Positions 4,048 through 5,055 of a stretch of DNA of 64,000 bases are shown here, piece by piece. The position numbers and the translations under genes are program-made. This stretch comes from Dictyostelium discoideum (Eukaryota). The notes beneath the pieces were generated by a model. It worked only from the letters and a program-made list of their open reading frames with translations. It was not told the DNA's origin and made no database searches. Positions within the stretch are counted from its first letter, which is position 1, and every line of letters begins with the position of its first letter. The DNA lies in assembly GCA_000004695.1 (NCBI GenBank), contig CM000151.3:7936001-8000000 (forward strand), written 5' to 3'.

Positions 4048-5055
4048 ATGGAAGAAAAAATAAAATTTTATTTTGAAATAATTGATTTCCAAAATCAAAA
4101 ATTTAAAATTCAAGAATTTACCTCAAAATTAATTGGTTTAAAAGAAGAAAGTTTTACAACATTTAAACCAATAGTATATGAAAAATATTTAAATTGGACT
4201 CAATCAATTGAGGAATCAATTTTAAAAACAAATGGTACAATAAATAAATCAATTTTTGAAGAAATTTTTTCCTATTGCGGTTACATCGGAGAATTCCTGG
4301 AATATGAGCCTTTTATAGTATTTTTAAAATTTACAACATTTGGTATAATTTTAGATGATTATATATTTGAAAAAATTAATTCACTAAATATGAAATTAAA
4401 TGAAAAAGAAAAACTTATTAATAGTTTAATATATTATAATAATAAAAATGAAAATAAAATTGGTTTCGAATTCTGGGAAATAATAAATGAATTTCAAAAT
4501 TTTACACATAAAGAGTCATTTCAGAGAATAATAAATGCAAATAGTTTATGGATAAAATCATCAATTGATTCAAGGAATATTTCAAATTCCCCAATAAATT
4601 CAAGATGTTCATTTAATGAATATTTTGAAAAAAGATCATCAGATGCTTCGGGTGATTTTATTTTAACAATTTCTATGATTGGAATAATGGATAATTATAT
4701 TGAAAATTCTATAATAGAAAGTAAAGAATTTCAAACTATAAATTACCATGCAAAGTCTTTTTTTTTATTAATAAATGATTTATATTCATTTAATAGAGAA
4801 ATTAATGAAAATGATTTATTAAACTATATAAAGATATTAGCAATTCAATTAAATTCAATACAATTATCAATTGATAAAACAATTGAATTAATAATTGATC
4901 ATTATTTGAAATTTTTATCGTCAATTGAAACAATCTTAAAATTATACCAAAATGATCAATCAACATATCAATTATTAAAACAAGTTTTCCAAAATTCAAA
5001 TAAAATTTTATCTGGTATTTATTTTGCACATAAAAAAAGTAAAAGATATAATTAA
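4048..5055 (+). CDS. microbial-type class I terpene synthase-like protein (335 aa), single exon
   Basis: Asp-rich motif LDDYIFE at about residue 103. NSE/DTE triad NDLYSFNRE (NDxxSxxxE) at about residue 233, with the ~130-aa spacing typical of class I terpene cyclases. An RY pair three residues from the C terminus. Size matches Dictyostelium DdTPS proteins. Genuine ATG at 4048. Confidence 0.5.
   Translation: MEEKIKFYFEIIDFQNQKFKIQEFTSKLIGLKEESFTTFKPIVYEKYLNWTQSIEESILKTNGTINKSIFEEIFSYCGYIGEFLEYEPFIVFLKFTTFGIILDDYIFEKINSLNMKLNEKEKLINSLIYYNNKNENKIGFEFWEIINEFQNFTHKESFQRIINANSLWIKSSIDSRNISNSPINSRCSFNEYFEKRSSDASGDFILTISMIGIMDNYIENSIIESKEFQTINYHAKSFFLLINDLYSFNREINENDLLNYIKILAIQLNSIQLSIDKTIELIIDHYLKFLSSIETILKLYQNDQSTYQLLKQVFQNSNKILSGIYFAHKKSKRYN

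Follow-up and report, generated by a model that had tools for sequence, protein, structure and literature searches.

The open reading frame (ORF) at positions 4048..5055 on the + strand of the 64-kb window (the whole stretch of Dictyostelium discoideum DNA analyzed here) raises the question of which enzyme it encodes and whether the enzyme forms a cyclic or an acyclic product. The original prediction, made from motifs in the translation, had taken it for an intronless gene of the microbial class I terpene cyclase type. With a probability of about 0.96, the ORF is tps4 (DDB_G0277385) of D. discoideum AX4, encoding a single-domain microbial-type class I terpene synthase that makes (E)-nerolidol, and no result of the analysis speaks against this. 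Thus, the word "synthase" is to be preferred to "cyclase", as described later.

The ORF listing and the translation give a single open frame of 335 codons followed by a stop, running from ATG to TAA. The G+C content of the window is 22%, at which a random codon is a stop with a probability of 0.091; the chance of 335 open codons is then approximately 1e-14 per position, and approximately 2e-9 when every frame of the window is counted. The nearest upstream in-frame stop is at 4018, and no ATG is found between 4018 and 4048. Therefore, the start of tps4 is unambiguous. In an exact-sequence look-up, the translation was identical at 335/335 residues to the AX4 protein EAL68749.1 / XP_642676.1 / UniRef100_Q75J90. 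UniProt Q75J90 is named 'Terpene synthase 4' (TPS4_DICDI), and the title of XP_642676.1 is 'hypothetical protein DDB_G0277385 [Dictyostelium discoideum AX4]'. Since the contiguous ORF is exactly the annotated AX4 protein, the gene has just one coding exon and is intronless as predicted. In the intact orthologues P0001 (D. cf. discoideum) and P0004 (D. citrinum), the coding sequence likewise runs as one continuous ORF. The G+C content of the tps4 ORF is 19%, and 90% of its third codon positions are A or T, as in the host. The features of the gene are as follows.

4048..5055, + strand: DdTPS4 (DDB_G0277385) coding sequence, single exon, 335 aa and TAA stop (ORF, exact protein identity, Pfam PF19086, class I terpene synthase fold in the AF2 model)
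4351..4371, + strand: Asp-rich metal-binding motif LDDYIFE, DDxxxE form, aa 102-108 (assigned from sequence; D103, D104, and E108 invariant in 18 homologues)
4633..4635, + strand: Arg196, putative diphosphate-sensor position, 47 residues before N243 of the NSE triad (invariant in 18 homologues)
4774..4800, + strand: NSE triad NDLYSFNRE, second metal-binding motif, aa 243-251 (fits (N,D)D(L,I,V)x(S,T)xxxE)
5014..5049, + strand: C-terminal GIYFAHKKSKRY, aa 323-334, ending in the RY pair, putative equivalent of the G(N/Y)xxWxxxxxRY segment in microbial enzymes, in the register given by the G and RY anchors
5073..5078, + strand: AATAAA, possible polyadenylation signal, 18 nt past the tps4 stop (pattern search; weak evidence in so A+T-rich a sequence)

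The family was assigned by profile. Pfam PF19086 (Terpene_syn_C_2) matches TPS4 with an E-value of 4.3e-15 and a score of 56.4 bits against a curated cut-off of 23.7. The match spans residues 94-284 of TPS4 and positions 1-195 of the 199 in the profile. In the same Pfam scan, the plant-type profile PF03936 stayed below its cut-off (20.5 versus 26.3 bits) and the plant N-terminal domain PF01397 was not found in TPS4. Sequence searches of the PDB gave marginal matches only, mostly terpene synthases and over the NSE region, with a best E-value of 0.0046 (profile search), and therefore a comparison of folds was needed.

An earlier AF2 model built from nine close orthologues alone was poor (pLDDT 47.7), and the prediction was redone with 18 more diverse homologues including distant dictyostelids. 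The resulting model is all-helical, with a pLDDT of 89.3 and a pTM of 0.89. A Foldseek search of the PDB with this model gave 50 listed matches, all 50 of which are class I terpene synthases from bacteria or fungi in full-length alignments (TM-score 0.67-0.81, probability 1.00). The listed matches include 1,8-cineole synthase (5nx7), the N-domain of geosmin synthase (5dz2), linalool synthase from Agrocybe (8gy0), trichobrasilenol synthase, epi-isozizaene synthase, and pentalenene synthase. Among them, the highest TM-score normalized by the query is that of the geosmin synthase N-domain (0.77). Identities in these structural alignments are 9-16%, and no solved structure among the listed matches exceeds about 16% identity to TPS4. 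The alpha-helical class I fold expected from the original prediction is thus present in the model, and the assignment to the microbial-type class I terpene synthases stands on the profile match above threshold, the fold, and the exact identity to DdTPS4. The two outcomes that would have told against the original prediction, no match to a terpene or isoprenoid synthase profile and no such fold, were both looked for and did not occur.

Class I enzymes bind metal ions and diphosphate through a set consisting of the Asp-rich motif, the NSE triad, the diphosphate-sensor Arg, and the RY pair. The motifs from which the gene had been recognized (LDDYIFE, NDLYSFNRE, and a C-terminal RY in a 335-aa protein) are all present in the translation. 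LDDYIFE is located at the end of a predicted helix (residues 86-107 in the AF2 model). The second metal-binding motif begins 141 residues after the beginning of the first, against the approximately 140 expected for the family; 134 residues lie in between, for which the predicted "about 130" was a fair estimate. NDLYSFNRE aligns with NDYFSFDRE of a solved terpene synthase found in the PDB sequence search. Arg196, 47 residues before the triad where about 46 would be expected, occupies the position of the diphosphate-sensor arginine in microbial class I terpene synthases and presumably has the same role as in the bacterial enzymes. The RY pair is R333-Y334, which is followed by N335 and the stop, and G323, I324, Y325, R333, and Y334 are invariant across the TPS4 orthologues. 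TPS4 therefore carries the full residue set expected for class I metal and diphosphate binding, and the residues presumably have the roles that they have elsewhere in the family.

The product should be noted, since it decides how the enzyme is to be described. According to PMC6524965, a later paper from the group of Chen et al. 2016, DdTPS4 yields (E)-nerolidol, which is an acyclic alcohol. The same paper describes nine TPS genes in D. discoideum, all expressed in the multicellular stage, and a volatile bouquet containing the products of DdTPS1-4, 6, 7, and 9; nerolidol is labelled as peak 11 in the headspace chromatogram. DdTPS8, described there as the closest paralogue of DdTPS4 and presumably derived via gene duplication, makes cyclic discoidol. 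The prediction that the gene belongs to a social-amoeba family producing volatile sesquiterpenes during development agrees with this literature, the protein being DdTPS4 itself. The prediction of a "terpene cyclase" holds for the architecture, which is that of a class I terpene synthase, but fails for the reported product, which is acyclic. TPS4 is accordingly a terpene synthase that does not work as a cyclase.

The reading in which TPS4 is a true cyclase, with a cyclic sesquiterpene as the main product and the DDxxxE variant steering specificity, draws on two observations: the fold and motifs of TPS4 are shared with enzymes that are mostly cyclases, and its closest paralogue is the discoidol-forming DdTPS8. 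Against these, the reported product is acyclic (PMC6524965), and DDxxxE is invariant in 18/18 homologues whatever the product, the motif in DdTPS8 being LDDYIYE. We regard this reading as very unlikely.

The form of the Asp-rich motif had been predicted to be peculiar to this copy and possibly to alter product specificity. This idea did not survive the comparison. DDxxxE is found in every one of the 18 aligned dictyostelid homologues, the DdTPS8 cluster among them, and is also present in the DpTPS6 and DpTPS11 of the set, which are farnesene-producing enzymes from D. purpureum (PMC6156593). Geosmin synthases have DDHFLE, which is also of the DDxxxE form (PMC7251104). The motif is invariant whatever the product is and therefore cannot be a specificity switch. 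DDxxxE was rejected as a specificity determinant, judging from its invariance in the 18 homologues and its presence in the cyclase DdTPS8 and in geosmin synthases.

The residues that keep DdTPS4 acyclic while DdTPS8 cyclizes are flagged as an open question in PMC6524965. In the segment G(N/Y)xxWxxxxxRY, the N/Y position is mostly Asn in cyclases and Tyr in the linalool/nerolidol synthases listed in PMC10088877. In GIYFAHKKSKRY of TPS4, Ile324 occupies the N/Y position and Ala327 the W position, and G-I-Y is invariant in the orthologues. Judging from this alignment, in which the register depends on the G and RY anchors, Ile324 and Ala327 may be what keeps the TPS4 product acyclic and may offer a better lead than DDxxxE.

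The relatives of TPS4 are few. An exhaustive HMMER scan of 1.84 billion representative proteins gave just 16 at E <= 0.001, and a word-indexed homologue search with alignment gained one extra protein. The source, where it was looked up, is Dictyostelium, Heterostelium, Tieghemostelium, or Polysphondylium, except for two proteins from metagenome contigs. In the 18-sequence dictyostelid alignment, D103, D104, E108, Y192, R196, D244, S247, E251, N259, K262, I271, and R333 are invariant, and N243 and Y334 (the latter present in at least 90%) are nearly so. BLASTP aligns DdTPS8 (Q54BE5) to TPS4 with 33% identity over 199 residues (E = 4e-23). The DdTPS8 cluster is among the closest matches outside the TPS4 orthologue group, in agreement with the published paralogy. 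The TPS4 orthologues recovered by the searches all belong to the D. discoideum complex (D. citrinum, D. dimigraforme, and D. firmibasis), and no DdTPS4 orthologue is listed for D. purpureum (PMC6156593). TPS4 is thus a paralogue of fairly young age and restricted to its lineage.

A recent horizontal acquisition of tps4 was also considered and showed no sign: the composition of the gene is host-like, and the homologues looked up are dictyostelid except for the two metagenome proteins.

Some of the homologues from the representative scan have more than one domain. P0010 (873 aa) apparently contains three tandem TPS-like units, judging from three matched stretches, and P0022 (649 aa) two. In P0020 (787 aa), the C-terminal approximately 165 residues are identical to the C-terminal part of DpTPS11 (P0012) and are fused to an unrelated N-terminal protein. 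In all three, tandem or adjacent genes have probably been joined into one gene model.

The dN/dS values (Nei-Gojobori) of tps4 against the intact orthologues are 0.15 (D. cf. discoideum) and 0.29 (D. citrinum). These ratios, well below 1 in the aligned coding sequences, indicate purifying selection. They bear on another reading, in which TPS4 is a decaying or non-functional paralogue left as a relic of the TPS4/TPS8 duplication. Two wild-isolate assemblies in which tps4 is apparently disabled (L001 and L002), and the confinement of orthologues to the D. discoideum species complex, can be cited for such decay; however, the AX4 ORF is uninterrupted and lacks none of the catalytic residues, the dN/dS values are low, and the enzyme is reported to be active with its product emitted (PMC6524965). 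That TPS4 is a relic is almost certainly wrong.

The two wild-isolate alleles are described here in their own right. In L001:3001-4004 (D. discoideum GCA_054859385.1), tps4 has a 1-bp deletion at around window position 4716, where ATAATAGAAAG becomes ATAAT-GGAAG. The contiguous frame ends eight codons past the deletion, short of the NSE triad. In the deposited model (P0002, 296 aa), 39 residues are passed over as if intronic, and the Pfam match is lost. In L002:2990-3010 (D. cf. discoideum GCA_054859205.1), which matches window positions 4048-4056, the start of tps4 is lost, ATGGAAGAA being replaced by TTTGTGGAA. The ATGGAA start is TTTGTG in this allele, the upstream sequence differs, and an in-frame upstream ATG is absent; the gene model (P0009, 290 aa) starts at Met46. 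On the assembled sequences, both alleles are apparently disabled, being either real null alleles or assembly errors. It is conceivable, albeit somewhat doubtful, that wild relatives are polymorphic for a working TPS4. Should the changes prove real, natural strains would differ in whether they emit nerolidol, and this presence/absence chemotype would provide a natural experiment on the purpose of the volatile.

A trans-isoprenyl diphosphate synthase or another enzyme of the isoprenoid synthase fold would likewise be alpha-helical and carry an Asp-rich motif, features common to both families, but this identity can be discarded: no prenyltransferase or polyprenyl synthase family appears in the Pfam scan of TPS4 even at E 10, TPS4 has one Asp-rich motif with an NSE triad as the second site instead of the two DDxxD motifs of those enzymes, and all the structural matches listed are terpene synthases.

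For TPS4 as an (E)-nerolidol synthase, the following mechanism, which is the established one for enzymes of this class, is the most likely. Judging from conservation, DDxxxE (D103, D104, and E108) and the NSE triad (N243, S247, and E251) would hold a trinuclear Mg2+ cluster. The cluster, together with R196 and R333-Y334, would bind the diphosphate group of farnesyl diphosphate and trigger ionization. Water would then quench the farnesyl/nerolidyl cation at C3 without ring closure to give (E)-nerolidol. Nerolidol is among the volatiles released by D. discoideum in multicellular development.

The gene is flanked by an FNIP-repeat protein gene (707-3058, - strand) and an SLBP-domain protein gene (5454-6662, - strand). 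Other genes in the window encode Ras/Roc, protein kinases, a homeodomain protein, and a PI4-kinase. A tblastn search of the 64-kb window turned up no second TPS, and a scan of 20 long ORFs there gave no match to a P450 or prenyltransferase family. TPS-P450 clusters are named only for DdTPS8, DdTPS2, and DdTPS3 in PMC6524965, and the lack of a P450 neighbour at tps4 is in agreement with that list. L001, L002, and L004 show the order FNIP-repeat (-), tps4 (+), and SLBP (-) most clearly. The placement is the same in L003, but the downstream gene there has no domain on record. At all four loci (L001-L004), the product of the upstream neighbour is without a domain record.

Very long poly-T or T-rich tracts lie on both sides of tps4 (window 3880-3990 and 5330-5410); they are typical of Dictyostelium intergenic DNA and suggest no specific element. 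Elsewhere in the window, the LUD domain (PF02589) occurs in two neighbouring ORFs, 26538-27218 (- strand, 226 aa) and 28365-29039 (- strand, 224 aa), which look like a tandem duplicate pair.

The identity of tps4, its family, the conservation of its motifs, its fold, its single exon, and the purifying selection on it are established in this analysis. As a discovery, the gene is ordinary, being already known and characterized. It was identified, named, and biochemically characterized in 2016, according to the passages of PMC6524965 and PMC6156593 that cite Chen et al. The reading of motifs alone nevertheless picked out a true terpene synthase, and the idea of DDxxxE as an unusual mark has been corrected.

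The likeness of the window gene to known systems is summarized as follows. It is identical to DdTPS4 (Q75J90, (E)-nerolidol synthase), without any difference. DdTPS8, discoidol synthase, resembles TPS4 in having DDxxxE, the NSE triad, and a C-terminal RYN. However, DdTPS8 makes a cyclic alcohol and adjoins a P450 gene (the DdTPS8-CYP521A1 cluster), whereas TPS4 makes an acyclic alcohol and has neither a P450 nor a second TPS in the 64-kb window. Plant terpene synthases (PF03936 and PF01397) have the same class I chemistry and metal-binding logic as TPS4, which is about half their size and lacks the N-terminal plant TPS domain.

The bacterial and fungal class I terpene synthases (S. clavuligerus 5nx7, S. 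coelicolor 5dz2, and Agrocybe pediades 8gy0) consist, like the TPS4 model, of a single alpha domain of approximately 310-340 aa and match the model over its full length, with TM-scores of 0.7-0.8. The Asp-rich motif, the NSE triad, and the RY pair are common to TPS4 and these enzymes, whereas the sequence identity in the structural alignments is only 9-16%. The segment G(N/Y)xxWxxxxxRY differs in the register used here: TPS4 has Ile in place of the Asn of cyclases or the Tyr of linalool/nerolidol synthases, and Ala in place of Trp (PMC10088877).
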